IMG/VR virus record: IMGVR_UViG_3300001598_000050
Location: 6,461-70,460 of that record
Reading direction: 5' to 3' (one strand)
DNA length: 64,000 bases
Source: a virus
Taxonomy: Duplodnaviria > Caudoviricetes
Of the stretch, positions 3,176 to 30,229 are shown one piece after another. Below the pieces are notes generated by a model. It did no database searches and was not told the origin of the DNA. It worked only from the letters and a program-made list of their open reading frames with translations. The position numbers and the translations under genes are program-made. Numbering within the stretch: position 1 is the first letter of the stretch; each line of letters begins with the position of its first letter.

Positions 3176-3524
3176 GAATAGGCAGCAGCTTCAGGTAGGC
3201 CTGTGTAGCGGCTTCTTTTTGGCTGGCTGTTCCGCTTAGTTTAAGCTGTGCATCTGTCAGCGACTGTCCTTCAATATTGATATACTGATAAAGCAGCAGC
3301 GCATTGGCCAGTTCAACAAATTCACTTTCTGTCGGGAATGTAACAGTTTTACCCGCGAAATAGGTAAGCAATCTGGTTAAGTTATTTCCGTCAAGCAGAT
3401 AGCATAATTCACTTAGCACTGCATATTCTGGAATATCTTGCATCTTATACAATGCGAATAACATCAGCGAATATATGTCAGATAGATGTAAGTTATTGAT
3501 ATTTTCTTTAATCCTGTTCTTCAT
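3129..3524 (-). CDS. putative Mor-like transcriptional regulator
   Basis: ELCYLLDGNNLTRLLTYFAGKTVTFP resembles the Mor-family pattern; start moved to MKNRIK at 3524. Confidence 0.4.
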   Translation of the reverse strand: MKNRIKENINNLHLSDIYSLMLFALYKMQDIPEYAVLSELCYLLDGNNLTRLLTYFAGKTVTFPTESEFVELANALLLYQYINIEGQSLTDAQLKLSGTASQKEAATQAYLKLLPILGEYNIDRGQIQHGN

Positions 3525-4332
3525 ACTCTGGTTCCTCTCCTGTAGGATTTGTAATAAGTCTTTCCAGAATTTCATCACTCACCTGGCAAGCACGATAACT
3601 GTCTATAATTTCCAGTTTAAGTTCCGCATAGAACTCCTTCAGTAATACACGTACATAGCCCGCCATAGTTTTCGGCAGCTTCCATAAGAAAATTGTAGTC
3701 GGATTTGCCGTAAGCTGCTTTTTACTTCTGAGCATTGCTGCACAATTAAGCAGAATAGAAATCTTCAGCTTTTTATAGTCCACTGAGCCCGGTTTAAAAG
3801 GTGACTTTTTTAACACCTTGTCGATAAGTGCCGGTGCCATGCGCATTGAGTCCTGCATAAATGGTGCAAGCTGTTCACTTTCCATTTGTGCGCTGTAAGC
3901 CAGCTGTTTAAGATGTTCCTTATAAGTAAACGCATCAAACTTTTTTGACACAAAATCTTCTGCAATTACTTCATTAAACGTTTCCTTCTGGTATTCCAGC
4001 TTCATCGGGTTCAGAAGCGCTTTTGTGTAGTTCAAGCAGGACTTAATCGGTCGTATTTCTTTTCCTTTAATTCGTTTGCCTTGGTTGTGATAATTTTTAA
4101 TCAAAGCAAAATACAGTCTGTTTGCCGCATAAAAAGCATAACCATCATAGTCTTCAAACTTTTGAAACATACGTTTCTTAATTGCAAGAGCCTTTGTCAG
4201 CAGCCACAAATAGTTATACACTGTGTCTGCAACACCGGGTTCTGCAGTCTCTGTTGCAATCTTGGGTACATTCTGATCTATGAAAATACATAAATCAGTG
4301 TAATGCATCCCTGCAGGTTTTCTCCATAACAT
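3508..4332 (-). CDS. hypothetical protein
   Basis: 274-aa ORF with a GAGGAG RBS 8 nt upstream, first gene after a promoter-like site. Confidence 0.75.
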   Translation of the reverse strand: MLWRKPAGMHYTDLCIFIDQNVPKIATETAEPGVADTVYNYLWLLTKALAIKKRMFQKFEDYDGYAFYAANRLYFALIKNYHNQGKRIKGKEIRPIKSCLNYTKALLNPMKLEYQKETFNEVIAEDFVSKKFDAFTYKEHLKQLAYSAQMESEQLAPFMQDSMRMAPALIDKVLKKSPFKPGSVDYKKLKISILLNCAAMLRSKKQLTANPTTIFLWKLPKTMAGYVRVLLKEFYAELKLEIIDSYRACQVSDEILERLITNPTGEEPEYEEQD

Positions 4333-6343: not shown

Positions 6344-6699
6344 TCAAACCAACTTTCTAAGCTGTGTGTAACTATTTCCCAGAAATTACGATAATTCGCA
6401 TCTTTTACTTTTATAAGCTCTGCTCGAGCTTCAGTCGTTAAGTCAGCTGCTGCCGCAAGCTTTCTGTTAGCTTTCAGCCAGTTATTAAAAAATATCATAG
6501 CAGCCTGCAGTGTCTTCAGCTTTAAGTCATTGTCAGGATCCTCAGACTCTATAAACGTAATATCTCTTACATACTGCAAAAGTACCATCAACGAGTGTAA
6601 GTTATTTGGCAGGCTTTCATTCTCAAAATAGCTAAGTAAACCATTAGTTGCTTTATTATAAGCTGCACTGAGCTGCTTTTTAGTCTCTTCAGTAGTCAT
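6340..6699 (-). CDS. hypothetical protein
   Basis: 119-aa ORF with 4-nt overlaps between the sbcD-like and sbcC-like genes. Confidence 0.7.
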   Translation of the reverse strand: MTTEETKKQLSAAYNKATNGLLSYFENESLPNNLHSLMVLLQYVRDITFIESEDPDNDLKLKTLQAAMIFFNNWLKANRKLAAAADLTTEARAELIKVKDANYRNFWEIVTHSLESWFE

Positions 6700-17124: not shown

Positions 17125-17679
17125 TTAGGTCAAAAGACCATAGACATCTTTAAGTATACTATATAATACAATGTATTTGTCGTGAATTTCATACGGTACA
17201 AGATTTTTCCAAGCTTCTTCTTGATTATCTAACATAAGTCTTCTGCAATCTGATGCTGAAATCTTAATATTATTTCTTGCAATTCTCAGTTCATCCATTT
17301 TAGGTGCAAGTTCATCAGTAAACCAAGAAGCTCTCTCTTTTTCACAGCCGGTAATATACAAATCTGGCTGCTTATGAAATTCGCCTTCAAATGTATTTAA
17401 TACATATTTACCCCAAATATCATTATTGCCAGCACCAATATCAGGCAAAGGTCTTATTAAAAGCTGCTTTGAAGCTACTTGTACTGAAAATACCGCTTCA
17501 AGCATTTCTTTTCTGAGCGTAAACGGAAATGGATTTGTTCGTGTATCACTTTCCTGTGAAGAACCTACATAAACAACCACTCTGTTACATATTTCAAGAG
17601 CATGTTCAATAATTGCTTTATGCCCTAAATGTAAGGTCTGAAAACGACCTACCACTAATCCTAAATCGTATAATTTCAT
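17125..17679 (-). CDS. nicotinamide/nicotinate mononucleotide adenylyltransferase (NadM/NadR-N-like)
   Basis: VVGRFQTLHLGH (HxGH), VGSSQ, NPFPF, ISASDCR. Confidence 0.88.
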   Translation of the reverse strand: MKLYDLGLVVGRFQTLHLGHKAIIEHALEICNRVVVYVGSSQESDTRTNPFPFTLRKEMLEAVFSVQVASKQLLIRPLPDIGAGNNDIWGKYVLNTFEGEFHKQPDLYITGCEKERASWFTDELAPKMDELRIARNNIKISASDCRRLMLDNQEEAWKNLVPYEIHDKYIVLYSILKDVYGLLT

Positions 17680-17734
17680 TTAGTTATCCTCTTTGCCAAT
17701 CGATATCTTCAATCCAACGTACAGTAATGCATGA

Positions 17735-18118
17735 CTATTCAATATAGCGGGCGCGTTCATATTCCACAACGTAATGCCTGTCCGCAGATTCAAATTTTTC
17801 TTTTATTCTTGTGTAAAGATAATAAAATGCATCTTCATATGCGAGAAACTCCGCATAACATTCGTCGTTTTTAATTGTAGGATGAAAAGTATTGTATAAG
17901 TGGTGTACATATCCTTCAATACTTAAAGTTGCAGTTGGAACTGGTTCATCACTAACAGCTATTTGGTCTTGAAGAAAATTACAACAACTTGAAAGCTCTA
18001 TATTAAACAGGAAAGATAGCCACTTTACACGTCTCTTATGACTTTTTTCTTTTTTCAGTTTAAGTTTAGACTCGTTATCCAATGCTTCTTCTTTTAGCTT
18101 AGTATAAGTTTTAATCAT
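17735..18118 (-). CDS. hypothetical protein; frame continues past the TAG to a TAA at 17684
   Basis: 127-aa ORF; after the TAG the same frame reads SCITVRWIEDIDWQRG-TAA, ending 4 nt before the next start. Confidence 0.6.
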   Translation of the reverse strand: MIKTYTKLKEEALDNESKLKLKKEKSHKRRVKWLSFLFNIELSSCCNFLQDQIAVSDEPVPTATLSIEGYVHHLYNTFHPTIKNDECYAEFLAYEDAFYYLYTRIKEKFESADRHYVVEYERARYIE

Positions 18119-24528: not shown

Positions 24529-25841
24529 TCAAAATTCAAGCTGGTCTGTCTCACCCGATAATACAGCTTCAATAGCTTCCTGTGGTATTTCAGCATGTGC
24601 TTTAAAGACCTGCTGACGGGCTGCGTCTTTATCCATACCTGATTTCTCTAACTTCTGATATTCTTCAAGAATTGCTGCCGCGTATTCATCTGCATACCAG
24701 CGGCCTACTACATACGCATCACAGCTTTGAGGCACGTCATCTCCGACTTCTGCTGCTGCAGCTATCATAACTTCAGGTAAACGCTTAGCAACTCTGTCTG
24801 CATAATAAGCAGGACATTCCATAAGCAGTTCATCGTGTACAGGAATAATCAGCTTTGCCTGACAGTCCTTCAGCTCCTGGTCTCTCGAAATATCTACCAT
24901 AGCTATCTTAGTCAACGAGGCCGCGGATCCTTGTACACGAGCATTAAAGCACTGTCTCGCTGCCTGAGAAATACGTCCTGTCCATGCAAAAAGGTCTACA
25001 CGATCATTCGGAATAAATGTAGGCAGTTTATCAGCACAATCAGCCCTGAAACGGTCCAGGATTGCGTCGAACTCTGCATGGGCAGGTAAAATAACGTCTG
25101 TACTCTGTCGGCCTTTCTGGAGCTTGTAGGACCGTGTGGACAAGAGCTCTTTTATCGCTGTAATATCCTTCATAAGCCTTTCGCGGCAAGAAGCACTGTA
25201 TTTATCTGCTTTTTTGTCAAGATCGTAAAAACTCTTAGCATCAAGATACCATTCAGGATTTGCTGCAATTTTTTTAAGCTTGCTGAAAGTAGCATTTGCC
25301 ATAGAGTACTCTGCTTTATAAACAGGCTTATAGTCAGGGTCTTCTTTGGCAGACTGTACATCTGTTGCAAGCTTTCTTGCATTAGCTAAAACAGCTTCTG
25401 CCAGCATTATTACTGTCCAAATCTCTTCCGGATCATTCTGAGTACGCTTATTTGAACAACCTAAGAACGGATTAAATGTTGCACCCTCATCCTTAAGATC
25501 CTTCAGCTTGGCTTCATAAGGCTGCATATTGATATCTTGCAGTCTTCTTCTGCGACCGACAAAATCTTCTACATAGCCATTTTTACGTAAAAATTCTTTT
25601 GAGCCCTCAATAGCTTCGTGCACTTTCGGAAAACCTGCAAAGAAATTATCCAAAAGTTCCTGTCCTTTTACTCGGGCCTCATCACCGGTAAGACCCATTT
25701 TAGCGCCTGCAGTTGCGGCTGACATCCCGTAGGACGTGGCTAGCGCTAAAGGTTCAACACCTTGCCAACGGAACGTCTTTCTTTGCCCGCTTTATTAAGT
25801 ACCTTTGCTGGGGACTTAACGACAATTGTTGCTGAACTCAT
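24529..25841 (-). CDS. polA: family-A DNA polymerase, C-terminal piece (motifs B and C); needs an 8-nt skip at 25741-25748
   Basis: RBS GAAAGGAAGGTGA, ATG at 25841, MSSATIVVKSPAKVLNKAGKERRSVGKVLNL-[TAGCGCTA]-ATSYGM...GRRRRL...NARVQGSAA...PVHDEL. Confidence 0.85.
25741..25748 (-). other. 8-nt coding gap in polA motif B (putative translational bypass, CUU-UAG-CG-CUA)
   Basis: removing TAGCGCTA restores R-x3-K-x7-YG spacing (RSVGKVLNLATSYG). Confidence 0.8.
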
Positions 25842-25843
25842 TT

Positions 25844-25905
25844 ACATCACCTTCCTTTCATAATTAACATCTAAATATATTATACATTAATATTCTTTAC
25901 ATTTT
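25844..25905 (-). promoter_or_regulatory. promoter and strong RBS for the polA C-terminal piece
   Basis: TTGAAA-18 nt-TATAAT with extended TG; RBS block GAAAGGAAGGTGATGT at 25844-25859. Confidence 0.7.
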
Positions 25906-25911
25906 CAAACA

Positions 25912-26390
25912 TTAATTTTCAATAAAATTAATCTTTATCTGAGCTACTTTTCCGCCTTCAAGTTGTACTGTATCTGCAGTTTCCGTGTTCTGCACAGTCA
26001 ATTCTCCAATGCTTGAAATAACTTTCATGCCTGGCTTGAGCTCAGAGGCAGCAAGTTCACCAGTACTCGTCGGAACTAAATAAAAACATGGAACTGTTAT
26101 TGAGCTATCTTCAGTTGTAACTTTTTTTTCTTTTCCAGAGCCGGCATATACTTTCTTGCCGTCTACTTCAAGTTCACGACCTTCAGGATGAAACTCTTTG
26201 TTGTCCACATACTCATTATGAAAAGCAGACTGTGCAATAATAGCATATAAGTCTTTACCATTATTGTAAGCATCATACATTTTCGGCTCTTGGGAAATAT
26301 AGGTAGTAAGTCGAGGATCAGCTATTCCTGAGCGGAATAATCGGATCCAACGATCCTATACTGCGTTCTAGTATTAATTGTTCTACTCAT
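25912..26390 (-). CDS. polA: family-A DNA polymerase, middle piece (motif A); needs an 8-nt skip at 26317-26324
   Basis: RBS GAAAGGAAGGTGA, ATG at 26390, MSRTINTRTQYRIVGSDYSAQE-[TAGCTGAT]-PRLTTYISQEPKMYDAYNNGKDLYAIIA. Confidence 0.85.
26317..26324 (-). other. 8-nt coding gap in polA motif A (putative translational bypass, GAA-UAG-CU-GAU)
   Basis: removing TAGCTGAT restores DYSAQEPR (compare E. coli DYSQIELR). Confidence 0.8.
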
Positions 26391-26395
26391 AGAGG

Positions 26396-26453
26396 ACATC
26401 ACCTTCCTTTCTTGCTTAAATAAGCATTAAATATTTTACATACTATTATACAA
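26396..26453 (-). promoter_or_regulatory. extended -10 promoter and strong RBS for the polA middle piece
   Basis: TG-TATAAT at about 26452-26445; GAAAGGAAGGTGATGT at 26396-26411 is identical to the block before the C piece. Confidence 0.65.
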
Positions 26454-26489: not shown

Positions 26490-28322
26490 TTAAATACTTT
26501 TTGTCCAAATATATTTTTTACTTCCTGCACCAAAAAGCTGCGCAATAGAAGCGTCCTTCAGTTCAGCATGACGACGAGGCTTTCGGTTAACAACCTGTCC
26601 GTTCTTTAACAGCCACTTCATGTCAGGGCCTGTGTAGCCGGCAAATTGCATTCCGGCGGCTTCATAGCTTCGGCCGTCAAATTTATTAAAGTCGCAATAA
26701 CTGAAAATTTTACTTGGCCGATAATCGGTAATAAAATGTTTTAAAAGCTTAGACACTCCGCCAACTACTATATTATTGCTGCCCGGACAGCCACGAATAA
26801 TTTCCCACTCGGTGTCTGTACTAATATTTCTATTGTACCGGGTATGACTGAAACTCATCAACTGCACAAGCTGTCCTTCATAAAATAATCCATAAGTAAC
26901 CTGTGCTGCACGATGTCCCTGTAAATGTACCTGTTCATTTAAAACAGCAGCCTCCGCATTTGTAATTTGGCGAATCTCACAATTACGAGCATAAACACGA
27001 GACTTGACTCTACCTAAAGCAATATCTAGCATCAATTTAATTTTTTCACGCATAGTCGGATCTTCCCATTCATACTCCCAAATATGGATGAGCCTAATAC
27101 CAGCGGCTTCAGCAGATTTAGACTTATTAAAATGATAATTTTTATCCGGCTGTACTTCAGTAGAGTGCCAGTAAGTGCCATTAAATTCGATTCCAATTTT
27201 TTTACTTGGAATATAAATATCAATTTCTTTACCACTGAGGACTGTCCTGCTATTCATTTCGCATAAGTCAGCTCCGATATAATCTGCAATTTCCTGTTCA
27301 TAATGACTTATTCCAGTGTACTGCTTCTTAATCATACCAAGTAAATTATTCTTACTTAATAAATAATAAGCATTATCACGAGAAATCTGAAGCTGTTGAG
27401 CAATATCATAGATAGATTTATCTTTGCAAAAGTCAGCAAGGGCCACAGGGTCTTCAAATAAACTTAAATATAAATCCGAATAATTCTCAGCAGAATACTT
27501 ATTCTTGCGCGCAGTCTGACAGCGCTTCTGCCTTATTTCTGGATTATTCTGCCACTCTGTTGATAAAAAGGCATAGTCTGTGCCATAAGTAGCCTGGTTA
27601 TACTGCTTAATGGCTTCTTTTCCTTTTTCGGAGCCTAAAAAAGTATTTGCGCCATAACGTTCTTGGCAGGTTTTCTTTGCTTGCACCCGATTGGTAAAAT
27701 GTGTATCACCATAGCGTTCTTGCTTAGTAGTACTGCTCTTTTGTTTTAGTTCTTCTACCTGAAAAGTGTTATCACAACCATACCTAGCCTGACAAGTTTC
27801 TATACATTTTGCACGGTTATTAAAATTAGGATCTCCATAACGTTCCAGCTTAGTTTGTCTGGCTTTTTCCTTAATTTCTTCAGGAGTCACATTCGAGGGC
27901 TGTAGATGCAGTTTATCTCCCCAGGTAGGGCTATATAGTGCCTTATTGGTTGCAATTTGCTCCTCCCGCTTGGTATGGGGCGTAATATTATATAAGTGAA
28001 GCAGATAATTTACAAAATATTCTTTAACTGCAAAATGCTCTGCAGTTAAATATGCAGAGCTGGTTTTGTAGTAATCAACTATTTCTTGCCGCTGTTCTTC
28101 TGGGACTTCATCGTAACCGTCAGCGTGCAAATGTATATATAGATTTGCTTCCGCAAAAGAATGTGGTGGCAAATTATGCAGTTTACAAAAAATATTCATT
28201 GCACTGCGAGATAAATTAAATTTTCGAGCGGTTTCTGCTACATTGTGCTCTTTGTAGTAGTCACAAATTGCCTGGATGGTTTGTGCATCCAGCGATTCAG
28301 CCGCGCTTTTTCGGTTACCCAT
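26490..28322 (-). mobile_element. free-standing putative homing endonuclease (Hef/Vsr-like PD-(D/E)XK) inserted in polA
   Basis: N-terminal HTH-like repeats, (E/A)RYG repeats, EIDIYIPSKKIGIEFNGTYWHS nuclease motif, C-terminal VYARNCEIRQ domain; sits between two polA pieces. Confidence 0.8.
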
Positions 28323-28324
28323 AG

Positions 28325-30229
28325 TTATACCTCGATTTGATATGTTTTTGCGACAGAATTATATGAGATATTTTTTATCATTTCCTGTGTACCGTCTACT
28401 AAAATTGCACTGCCTGCTGTAAGACTGTCACAATATTTAAAACCGTCAGGAGTCTCAACTTCAGTTATTTCGGGCACAGTAAATGTATTTTCAGCGTCTG
28501 CCTCGATTAATTTAGCAGATGATGCAGCCTTGAATAGCATACGGCATATTTTTCCGTCGCCTCTGCTTGGTATATTTTGAATGTTAATTCCACTCACAGT
28601 AACCTGTTCGTCTTTATCATTCAGCCAATGCCATTTGCCACCCGATGAATATCTGCCTGTATTTGTGCCTGTAGCATTGAGATGAAAGCGAATTCTACCA
28701 TCTGGCCAGTGCTTTGCAAGCTCAGGAATAACGTCAATATAAGTTGTAATCAACTTCATAAAAGCCCTGCGCTTCAGCAGCATACTTGCAAGATTAGCCG
28801 CATAAGCCCATTTTTTGTCTTTTGAAATATCATCAGGGCGGTCAAGGGCTTCTTCAGCCTCTTCCATATCACCGTCTTCATTCGTCTCAGCTTCTTCGGG
28901 ATCTTCAAGCATAGGCAGATATCCTGCAAGCTTTTCTTTAATTTCTATCAGCTGATCTTTACCTGTTTTCCTGTTAGTTGTGTCGCCAGCTGTTACTTCA
29001 AGCACATCGTAAAACAGAATTGCAAGCTGAGTAGGTGAAGCAAAGTTTACAGGATTGTCCAGCTGTGCTGCTTTTGATTTACCTATCTTATAGCGGTTTC
29101 CGTCGTCATCGATGTTAGGATATTCCTTTTCAATCTTTGCCTGTGCCATTGTAGTCTTTTTAGGTACATACGTTCTTGTCTGCTCATTGTTCTCAGGCTT
29201 CAGACGCCACTCATTAATTACGCCAGCAATAGCTGACATGGTTTCATCTACTTTTCTGTCAAGCTGATCAAGTAACTCGTTATACTTCTCTTTCAGTTTT
29301 GCACCTAGTTTCTCGTCTACACCAACTCCTGTGAGCTCCATCTCAGCTGTAACTACTGTTATAGGCATTTCTACTTCATGAAATAACCAGCGAATACCCG
29401 GAAGCATTCTGGTACCTGTCATATCGAGATGCGGGCCATACTCGTCTTTTGTAAGTTCTTTTTCCTGCCGCTCATAGAGTTTATCAGTCATAAATGCGTC
29501 GGTTGCGCTATAAAGTGCAAAGACTTCCGGATCTACATCAGCATATGCAACGTGCTCAAACAGTTTTTCAATATCATATTTTTCCTGCTTAGGGTCTATC
29601 TTAGTTACATACTGAGACTTTAAACCTGCAAGCTCATTTTCATTCAGAAGTCTTGCACAGGTCATTGTGTCCCAGTAGGGCTTCATTTCAACTCCGCAAG
29701 TGCATTTCAGAACTTCGTAATCGAATTTAGCGTTATGAAAAATTTGCTTTATTCCTGAATCATTGATTTTTATGAGTGCTTCTGTAATATCCTTTTCAGT
29801 CAGCTGCCAGGAAAGACGTTCTTTCGTCTCAGAATTTCGATGATTAATCGGAACATAAGCCTGTTTACCGCCCGGATAATAAAAACACGGGCCCATAAGC
29901 TGACAGTAGCTGCAGTCTGTGGTATTATTTGTTTCAGTATCTATTGCAATTCGGCCAGAAGCAATAGCATTTGCAATATAGGTGTCAAGCTGTTCTTTCG
30001 TCTTAATAACCAGAACATTTTGTTTTTGTTTTCCGAGTACTCTGTGAACAGTTGAATTAATAATAGCAAGTCTCTCCACAAGAGTAATTTTTCTGGACTT
30101 TAAAGCTTTTCCAGCATCAATATCCTCTGCGGGTTTCTCAAGCTTTTTCTTAATCTTCTTGGTGCTCACTTTGGGCAACTGAATGTCTAAGTCATCACCA
30201 AAAATAGACACATAACTGTAGTTTTCCAT
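28325..30229 (-). CDS. polA: family-A DNA polymerase, N-terminal piece (3'-5' exonuclease and thumb) with a C-terminal appendage
   Basis: IAIDTET (Exo I), IFHNAKFD (Exo II), YSATDA (Exo III), TGTNTGRYSS, INIQNIPSR, RMLFKA. Confidence 0.92.
   Translation of the reverse strand: MENYSYVSIFGDDLDIQLPKVSTKKIKKKLEKPAEDIDAGKALKSRKITLVERLAIINSTVHRVLGKQKQNVLVIKTKEQLDTYIANAIASGRIAIDTETNNTTDCSYCQLMGPCFYYPGGKQAYVPINHRNSETKERLSWQLTEKDITEALIKINDSGIKQIFHNAKFDYEVLKCTCGVEMKPYWDTMTCARLLNENELAGLKSQYVTKIDPKQEKYDIEKLFEHVAYADVDPEVFALYSATDAFMTDKLYERQEKELTKDEYGPHLDMTGTRMLPGIRWLFHEVEMPITVVTAEMELTGVGVDEKLGAKLKEKYNELLDQLDRKVDETMSAIAGVINEWRLKPENNEQTRTYVPKKTTMAQAKIEKEYPNIDDDGNRYKIGKSKAAQLDNPVNFASPTQLAILFYDVLEVTAGDTTNRKTGKDQLIEIKEKLAGYLPMLEDPEEAETNEDGDMEEAEEALDRPDDISKDKKWAYAANLASMLLKRRAFMKLITTYIDVIPELAKHWPDGRIRFHLNATGTNTGRYSSGGKWHWLNDKDEQVTVSGINIQNIPSRGDGKICRMLFKAASSAKLIEADAENTFTVPEITEVETPDGFKYCDSLTAGSAILVDGTQEMIKNISYNSVAKTYQIEV

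Follow-up and report, generated by a model that had tools for sequence, protein, structure and literature searches.

Translational bypassing that is put to use by the genome carrying it is known from very few systems: gene 60 of phage T4 with its homologues, the mitochondria of one lineage of yeasts, and a candidate case in a phage of Streptomyces. The T4 arrangement gene 39/mobA/gene 60 includes a 50-nucleotide (nt) translational bypass (Huang 1988; Bonocora 2011; Manning and Atkins, 10.1101/2022.08.31.505936), the gap guards the invaded allele from MobA (Bonocora et al. 2011, as summarised in 10.1101/2022.08.31.505936), and relatives of gene 60 include ‘hit and run’ cases (10.1101/2022.08.31.505936). 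Stop-hopping on synthetic sequences such as CUU UAG CUA is established for E. coli (Weiss 1987, cited in 10.1101/2022.08.31.505936 and PMC5009743); natural examples of in-frame stop-hopping are not known, and short matched-codon counterparts of gene 60 have long been expected (PMC5009743). Here we describe a family A DNA polymerase gene (polA) from a virus of the Caudoviricetes that is encoded in pieces and is interrupted, within catalytic motifs A and B, by two 8-nt inserts that each begin with an in-frame stop codon. The gene lies in positions 6,461 to 70,460 of IMG/VR record IMGVR_UViG_3300001598_000050, a stretch of 64,000 nt to which we refer as the window and whose numbering is used below. 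At a probability of roughly 0.78, we regard both inserts as non-coding gaps that translating ribosomes would bypass by a short hop. Our literature search found no published description of short bypass gaps in phage polymerases.

The window has a G+C content of 38% and carries every gene on the minus strand. Open reading frames (ORFs) and Pfam matches indicated that the polymerase is encoded as three pieces (N, middle and C), arranged as follows:

28325..30229, minus strand: polA N piece, 634 amino acids, with the 3'-5' exonuclease and the start of the polymerase domain (Pfam DNA_pol_A_exo1 and DNA_pol_A; PHROG DNA polymerase)
26490..28322, minus strand: free-standing homing endonuclease gene, 610 amino acids, between the N and middle pieces (PHROG 3339 ‘homing endonuclease’, E value 5.5e-89)
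26325..26399, minus strand: leader of the middle piece, 25 codons (MSSMSRTINTRTQYRIVGSDYSAQE), with the motif A catalytic Asp, ending at take-off codon GAA (from sequence; own Shine-Dalgarno (SD) element and ATG)
26317..26324, minus strand: site A gap TAGCTGAT, comprising stop TAG (26324-26322), CT and landing triplet GAT (26319-26317) (from sequence)
25912..26316, minus strand: middle piece after the hop, 134 amino acids, with the remainder of motif A (PR...) and the start of the fingers (weak Pfam DNA_pol_A match, residues 2-36)
25749..25841, minus strand: leader of the C piece, 31 codons (MSSATIVVKSPAKVLNKAGKERRSVGKVLNL), with the motif B Arg and Lys, ending at take-off codon CTT (from sequence; own SD element, ATG 25841)
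25741..25748, minus strand: site B gap TAGCGCTA, comprising stop TAG (25748-25746), CG and landing triplet CTA (25743-25741) (from sequence)
24529..25740, minus strand: C piece after the hop, 403 amino acids, with ATSYG of motif B, the fingers and palm motif C (VHDE) (Pfam DNA_pol_A, E value 2.3e-29)

On the coding strand, site A reads GGA TCC GAT TAT TCC GCT CAG GAA(26327-26325) TAG CT GAT CCT(26316-), and site B reads GGC AAG GTG TTG AAC CTT(25751-25749) TAG CG CTA GCC(25740-). The first in-frame TAG is codon 26 of the middle piece, which starts at ATG 26399 or ATG 26390, and codon 32 of the C piece; both pieces have the same strong SD block, GGAAGGTGATG, ahead of their starts. The frame beginning at CCT (26316) gives PRLTTYISQEPKMYDAYNNGKDLYAIIAQSAF..., collinear with family A polymerases, and the frame beginning at GCC (25740) continues as ATSYGMSAATAGAK.... 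Omission of the 8 nt at site A joins DYSAQE to PRLTTYISQEPK..., which is motif A (DYSAQEPR), and the same omission at site B (where TAGCGCTA is a perfect palindrome) joins RRSVGKVLNL to ATSYGMSAATAG..., which is motif B (GKVLNLATSYG). The two matched gaps in motifs A and B are thus exactly as a first-pass annotation of this DNA had described them, and the joined motifs are those of intact relatives.

The hop that we infer from these sequences would begin when a ribosome has its peptidyl-tRNA paired to the take-off codon, which is GAA (Glu) at site A and CUU (Leu) at site B, while UAG occupies the ribosomal A site. Instead of termination, the peptidyl-tRNA would unpair, the mRNA would slip forward by 8 nt, and the anticodon would re-pair with the first downstream triplet sharing the first two bases of the take-off codon (GAU at site A, CUA at site B). 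Decoding would then restart at the following codon, CCU or GCC respectively, to yield unbroken DYSAQEPR and RRSVGKVLNLATSYG, with a predicted junction peptide at site B of ...VLNLATSYGMSAATAGAK.

The closest homologues of the polymerase are about 50% identical and come from uncultured phages. A protein search with the C piece after the hop returned 163 homologues, and the called proteins of many of these start exactly at the Met that follows motif B, which hinted at the same interruption in those genes. Against cultured phage genomes, a megablast search with the locus gave no match, and a protein search found distant Firmicutes phage polymerases only, none of which shares this architecture; a single-protein scan of viral contigs also gave no match. 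We compared approximately 80 related contigs from IMG/VR, Joint Genome Institute (JGI) metagenomes, ENA, Logan and GenBank whole-genome shotgun records (contigs are designated by L numbers below), calling the gap at each site as the smallest deletion that restores motif A or motif B. Many relatives are uninterrupted at both sites. The others, together with the window, yielded 21 gap types, and the pattern is present in more than 30 distinct contigs. In the notation used here the take-off codon is followed by the gap in brackets, and then by the resume codon where it is given. The types found at motif A are:

TCT[TAGTCT]
TCT[TAAGTCT]
TCG[TAGGTTCA]
TCG[TAAGAAAGTCG]
TCT[TAGGTAAGGTCT]
TCT[TAGCAAAAGAAGTCT]
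GCC[TAGCT]
GCT[TAAAAAAGTA]
GAA[TAGCTGAT], in the window, L028 and L062
GAA[TAGCCTGAG], 9 nt, in L015 and L013
CCG[TAAGGTTCG], the gap being present in five contigs

Those found at motif B are:

CTT[TAGCGCTA], in the window only
CTT[TGATGCTA] GCT, 8 nt, in L048
CTT[TGAATCTC]
CTT[TAAGTGCTG], in L006 (ENA) and L007 (Logan)
CTT[TGAGTGCTG]
CTT[TAAGGGCTT]
CTG[TAGGTG]
ACC[TAAGTAAACT]
ACG[TAAGTAGTCA]
ACT[TAGTGAACT]

The recurrence of these gaps speaks against an assembly or sequencing artefact. The same or analogous gaps occur in independent assemblies (IMG/VR, ENA, Logan and GenBank), and an artefact would not regularly yield an in-frame stop together with a matched codon; we consider this explanation extremely improbable. 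A search for DNA or RNA sequencing runs containing the region returned none. The site A gap TAGCTGAT stands at the identical codon in L028 and L062, in a polymerase whose protein is only about 50% identical to that of the window, and nine further gap types in relatives fall at the same two motif B codons as the gap in the window.

An in-frame stop immediately follows the last conserved codon in 21 of 21 types (TAG in 10, TAA in 8 and TGA in 3), as in GAA TAG and CTT TAG of the window; the expectation for a stop as first triplet is 3/64 per type. The triplet directly 5' of the resume codon is identical to the take-off codon, or differs from it in the wobble base alone, in 17 of 21 types. With a chance of 1/16 that the first two bases match, the probability of at least 17 matches in 21 is 1.6e-17, and while the 21 types are partly non-independent the margin over chance is very large even so. 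Among those 17 types the landing triplet is also the first one downstream with the same first two bases. The first-pass annotation had proposed a hop of 8 nt at both sites and a grammar common to them. Alignment of homologous genes supports the hop, in that the gap length varies (5 to 15 nt) and the stop and matched codon persist; of the grammar, the succession of codon, stop and matched triplet is borne out across the family, but the ‘two nt starting with C’ between stop and landing triplet are not a general rule.

Where take-off and landing triplets differ, the difference lies in the third (wobble) base alone in 10 types, in the first base in 2 and in the second base alone in none. Such a bias is predicted by codon-anticodon re-pairing and is not expected of a decaying target-site duplication. 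It also bears on the possibility that the 8-mers are removed or skipped at the nucleic-acid level, by cleavage-ligation micro-splicing or by polymerase template-switching between short repeats, so that the mRNA is continuous. The take-off and landing triplets do form short direct repeats that flank the gaps, often within hairpins, and some relatives encode RNA-repair-type enzymes near polA (a CCA-adding enzyme and kinase-like proteins). Splicing, however, needs no in-frame stop as the first triplet and would not favour differences at the wobble position. Removal is further disfavoured in that we know of no system that takes 5-15 nt out of bacterial or phage mRNA, and we judge it improbable.

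Gap lengths of 5, 6, 7, 8, 9, 10, 11, 12 and 15 nt were seen, with remainders of 0, 1 and 2 on division by three in 10, 4 and 7 types, respectively. The downstream genes of L028 and L015 are 90-97% identical, yet the former has the 8-nt gap TAGCTGAT and the latter the 9-nt gap TAGCCTGAG; since a 1-nt difference in translated sequence would be lethal, this pair argues that the gap is not decoded. (The two contigs, at L028:5342-5349 and L015:5752-5760, differ in the gap and in the approximately 30 nt that follow, which suggests that a short patch around the gap was replaced.) Contig L038 combines a 6-nt motif A gap (TCT TAG TCT; 4070-4090) with a 9-nt motif B gap that contains two consecutive stops (ACT TAG TGA ACT; 3520-3532), the latter being, on its sequence, the clearest case against readthrough. 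At site B of L005 and L036 a stop lies in the sole frame that a +1 shift could use. The presence of all frame classes, of double stops and of a stop in the shift frame means that frameshifting and readthrough fail as general explanations. Translational bypassing in the form of a short stop-hop is the reading that would fit all cases as one mechanism.

Several observations weigh against a hop. The landing triplet GAU at site A is only a two-of-three match for the Glu tRNA; the first-pass annotation was correct that it shares the first two bases with GAA, and the landing is near-cognate only. Four of the 21 types mismatch at bases 1-2: CCG/TCG and CTG/GTG match at positions 2-3, and the pairs GCT/GTA and ACG/TCA match poorly. 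For about half of the types only, native gap sequence adds clear structure relative to random inserts. Without stimulation, stop-hops in E. coli have a low efficiency (about 1%), and two such hops in series would produce very little enzyme unless stimulators exist. Finally, a -1 (or +2) frameshift at each stop of the window is possible by frame: the -1 frame is open across both gaps, and the 8 nt plus one re-read base would give DYSAQE-IAD-PR and KVLNL-LAL-ATSYG, with IAD and LAL inserted. Neither site has a slippery X XXY YYZ heptamer (CAG GAA TAG and AAC CTT TAG, or C AGG AAT and A ACC TTT in the -1 register), however, re-pairing after a -1 shift would be limited to one base at both, and each catalytic motif would acquire three residues. 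Since the gaps of relatives cover all frame classes, among them in-frame gaps that contain one or two stops and gaps with a closed shift frame, no single shift fits them, and we regard frameshifting as very improbable.

Among the types that lack a matching landing triplet, ACG...TCA is found at L005:6985-6994 (and also in L083) and GCT...GTA at L080:2573-2582. Both lie in hairpins, formed by CUAC-GUAA-GUAG in L005 and by a 7-basepair stem, CUCGGCU/AGCCGAG, around the gap in L080.

Readthrough of a suppressed or reassigned TAG was also considered for the window and rejected. The zero frame after each TAG is non-homologous, a second stop follows at site B, and 8-nt gaps change the frame. Only 1 of the 64 long ORFs in the window ends in TAG, and no tRNA gene, including any suppressor tRNA gene, was found in it.

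A different view of the same stops is that they are real, and that the polymerase is either dead or decaying, or is assembled non-covalently from at least five fragments restarted at the next ATGs. Gene callers do return exactly such fragments: the first ATGs after the gaps, 26280 and 25725, open called ORFs of 122 and 398 amino acids. Restarting at these positions would, as the first-pass annotation had pointed out, give proteins that lack the catalytic Asp or the motif B Arg and Lys. Those residues would end up on leader peptides of 25 and 31 amino acids, and 12 and 5 conserved motif residues would be lost. The pieces are otherwise intact ORFs, and the codons between gap and next ATG are kept in the hop frame (QEPRMT.FLS; AATYGM). 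The window record is a 70-kb fragment estimated to be 31% complete; no other polymerase is present in it, and one could lie elsewhere in that genome. A more complete relative, G001 (the record of L011), is 223 kb long, has terminal repeats, is rated 100% complete and carries a 5-nt motif A gap, and no PolB, Pol III alpha or second polA was found in it. A gap in a complete genome with no other polymerase makes a dead gene unlikely, and the pattern recurs across more than 30 contigs; we consider it quite improbable that the stops are real.

The gaps were found solely in polA genes that are split a short way upstream, at 14-38 codons past the new start. Counts of loci were as follows:

Site A: split with gap, 17; split and intact, 3; continuous and intact, 10; continuous with gap, 0
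Site B: split with gap, 11; split and intact, 1; continuous and intact, 19; continuous with gap, 0

In the window the gaps lie 22-31 codons past the new starts, where the DNA of the gene is most conserved. At many loci the pieces are separated by homing endonuclease genes or by what remains of them. Homologues of the 610-amino-acid endonuclease of the window occupy the same position upstream of site A in L028, L048 and L060, and GIY-YIG genes are found upstream of site A in L038 and L080 (with fragments in L014, L040 and L041) and upstream of site B in L006, L039, L042 and L053. The split between the middle and C pieces of the window consists only of a 70-nt spacer with no endonuclease gene, resembling the ‘hit and run’ relatives of gene 60. 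The 610-amino-acid protein also matches PHROG 559 and Pfam DUF7487, with a sub-threshold match to restriction-endonuclease-like proteins. One relative (L008:4186-7100) has the same endonuclease family and a three-piece polA, yet both motifs are uninterrupted, so that a split is not always accompanied by a gap; its endonuclease gene is located further upstream, with part of the end of the N piece encoded after it.

The leaders that precede the gaps are 85-91% identical between phages, as compared with 44-58% for the rest of the polymerases. For the middle piece of the window, the leader is 86% identical to that of L008 and the rest of the piece 48%; for the C piece, the leader is 88% identical to the uninterrupted leader of L008/P0019 and the rest 44%. 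Around a shared gap type, 30 nt are 90-100% identical in genes that are otherwise diverged. Such conservation suggests either that the cassette end has spread horizontally or that it is under strong constraint.

These observations support, at the level of sequence comparison, a reading in which the polA gaps are bypassed in translation and belong to homing-endonuclease cassettes, by which polA has been divided into pieces with starts of their own. By analogy with T4, and given that the gaps lie where the DNA of the gene is most conserved and are tied to split genes, the gap most likely destroys the endonuclease target site and so would make the invaded allele immune. More broadly, and with moderate confidence, we propose that stop-initiated gaps of 5-15 nt are widespread, modular natural hop elements, installed by endonuclease cassettes in the DNA of phage polymerase catalytic motifs, where they would confer immunity on the invaded allele. 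Snap-back or templated repair at the cut may be their source, and would account for the many gaps that copy neighbouring codons in inverted or direct form; that these copies record such an origin is speculation.

The link to T4 gene 60 drawn in the first-pass annotation extends, accordingly, beyond the codons to gene architecture (gaps in split pieces only, and an endonuclease gene upstream of site A). In both systems a free-standing endonuclease gene divides an essential replication gene, translation of the downstream piece begins at a start of its own, the non-coding gap follows that start by a few dozen codons, and a stop stands next to the take-off codon. The landing triplet is matched fully or save for the wobble base, RNA pairing (here predicted) involves the take-off region, and some relatives show signs of later loss of the endonuclease gene. 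The polA gaps differ in being far shorter (5-15 nt, and 8 nt in the window, rather than 50 nt) and in having no similarity in sequence to that of gene 60. The gene that hosts them is polA and not a topoisomerase gene, and the three-piece gene of the window has two gaps in one enzyme, each in a catalytic motif. The endonucleases also differ from MobA by annotation (PHROG 3339/DUF7487 in the window, GIY-YIG in relatives).

For gene 60, a forward driver has been proposed in which mRNA already past the ribosome pairs with the take-off region (Wills et al., 10.1101/2024.12.09.627546). We folded the polA sites, comparing minimum free energies with those of 200 shuffled sequences and, in a second comparison, with those of random inserts. 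Two hairpins were predicted in the window:

26315..26348, minus strand: site A hairpin, in which the Gly-Ser-Asp-Tyr-Ser codons pair with take-off codon, stop and gap (from folding)
25738..25766, minus strand: site B hairpin, G-U rich, in which the Gly-Lys-Val-Leu codons pair with take-off codon, stop, gap and resume codon (from folding)

The site A hairpin has a minimum free energy of -14.8 kcal/mol (z score -3.55), and none of the 200 shuffles was as stable. A hairpin at this site had been suggested from an AGGA...UCCU pairing; one is indeed predicted, but it is larger than that, consisting of GGAUC...GAUCC plus UUAUUCC/GGAAUAG, such that upstream codons pair with GGAAUAG and CUGAUCC. This hairpin, one arm of which consists of codons already translated and the other of which holds the take-off codon, stop and gap, probably assists in drawing the mRNA forward. 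The same two-stem design is predicted in L028 and L013, and in L013 the outer stem is kept despite a different gap sequence. Support is weaker at site B, where a 53-nt region has a minimum free energy of -19.5 kcal/mol (z score -2.5; 2 of 200 shuffles as stable) and 17% of random inserts fold equally well.

Elsewhere, inspection by eye together with folding identified GUAA-capped stems in L014, at site B of L005 and in L040, with a loop made of the last take-off base plus UAA. A gain in structure over random inserts is clear for the GAA and CCG types and for a few others, and the notion of a hairpin as a universal feature of the gaps was not upheld. RNA structure is thus likely to be a helper rather than a defining feature. 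An SD-like AAGGUG upstream of site B was dropped as a candidate signal, as it is not conserved in relatives.

Site B, CUU UAG CG CUA, amounts to the synthetic stop-hop CUU UAG CUA plus two bases; in both, matched Leu codons surround a UAG, and the peptidyl-tRNA would re-pair a few nt downstream. The E. coli examples are laboratory constructs of low efficiency, whereas the polA pattern occurs in nature, is conserved and seems to be needed for an essential enzyme. Among short gaps, the closest published analogue is Streptomyces phage Hau3's terminase gene, which has two 10-nt inserts and for which bypass has been proposed at rare UUA codons (PMC10732093). There, as here, a single essential phage gene is interrupted by two inserts of about 10 nt, sequence comparison is the basis on which bypass is proposed, and a stem-loop and a landing codon lie nearby. 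The proposed trigger in Hau3 is a rare sense codon tied to the developmental state of the host, with a regulatory role, in contrast to a stop codon and an endonuclease cassette in polA. In the mitochondria of Magnusiomyces capitatus, 81 bypassed inserts (‘byps’) have been described (PMC5009743); they similarly show that many short frame-disrupting inserts can be tolerated via bypass, but they involve mitochondrial ribosomes, lengths of 27-55 nt, an unassigned codon in the A site and many genes.

The organization of the locus also recalls ‘fractured genes’, in which a homing endonuclease gene, flanked by the halves of a split intein, breaks up the coding sequence of an enzyme (Dassa et al. 2009, PMC2677866). 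As in those genes, and in the split gp43 and NrdA of T4-like phages, a replication enzyme is encoded in separately translated pieces with an endonuclease gene between them. Fractured genes are without coding gaps, and no intact intein motifs were found here with Pfam. The N piece terminates in an appendage of about 66 amino acids followed by a stop, and the middle piece after the hop, otherwise collinear with intact relatives, does so in one of about 57 amino acids. These appendages of about 60 amino acids (28325-28530 and 25912-26090, minus strand) resemble each other (..TVPEITEVETPDGF.. and ..TVPCFYLVPTSTGEL..) and look like the first strands of a Hint/intein domain, without the later intein motifs; a faint likeness to the start of the Hint domain is shared with fractured genes. 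Docking modules are one possibility for them, and leftovers of a split intein, on the model of fractured genes, are another. A split intein at the breakpoints found no support in Pfam, which recovered no intein domain.

The more than 20 variants at two sites constitute a natural mutagenesis series in take-off codon, landing triplet, stop identity, gap length and flanking structure, which makes the requirements for hopping directly testable. If the hop is real, it would generalise the gene 60/mobA idea: selfish endonucleases would shield their insertion by breaking the frame of an essential gene that the ribosome then repairs. Two serial hops in an essential enzyme would also imply efficient natural stop-hopping, achieved via mRNA pairing, a short nascent leader or a phage factor. 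As gene callers fragment these polymerases, metagenomic phage annotation systematically miscalls them.

The 15-row tree of C pieces was too poorly resolved for counting gains and losses of gaps, and a scan of the whole window for junctions of a stop with matched codons, which returned chiefly ordinary gene overlaps, was too noisy to read. The sole long ORF of the window that ends in TAG (17735-18118, minus strand, ending ...ATT GAA TAG; region 17679-17760) is followed by 17 open codons and then by a TAA located 4 nt before the next ATG. Beyond its stop, the hexamer ATTGAA is repeated 33 nt downstream in the same frame, and either readthrough or a 36-nt hop from GAA to GAA is conceivable from this arrangement.

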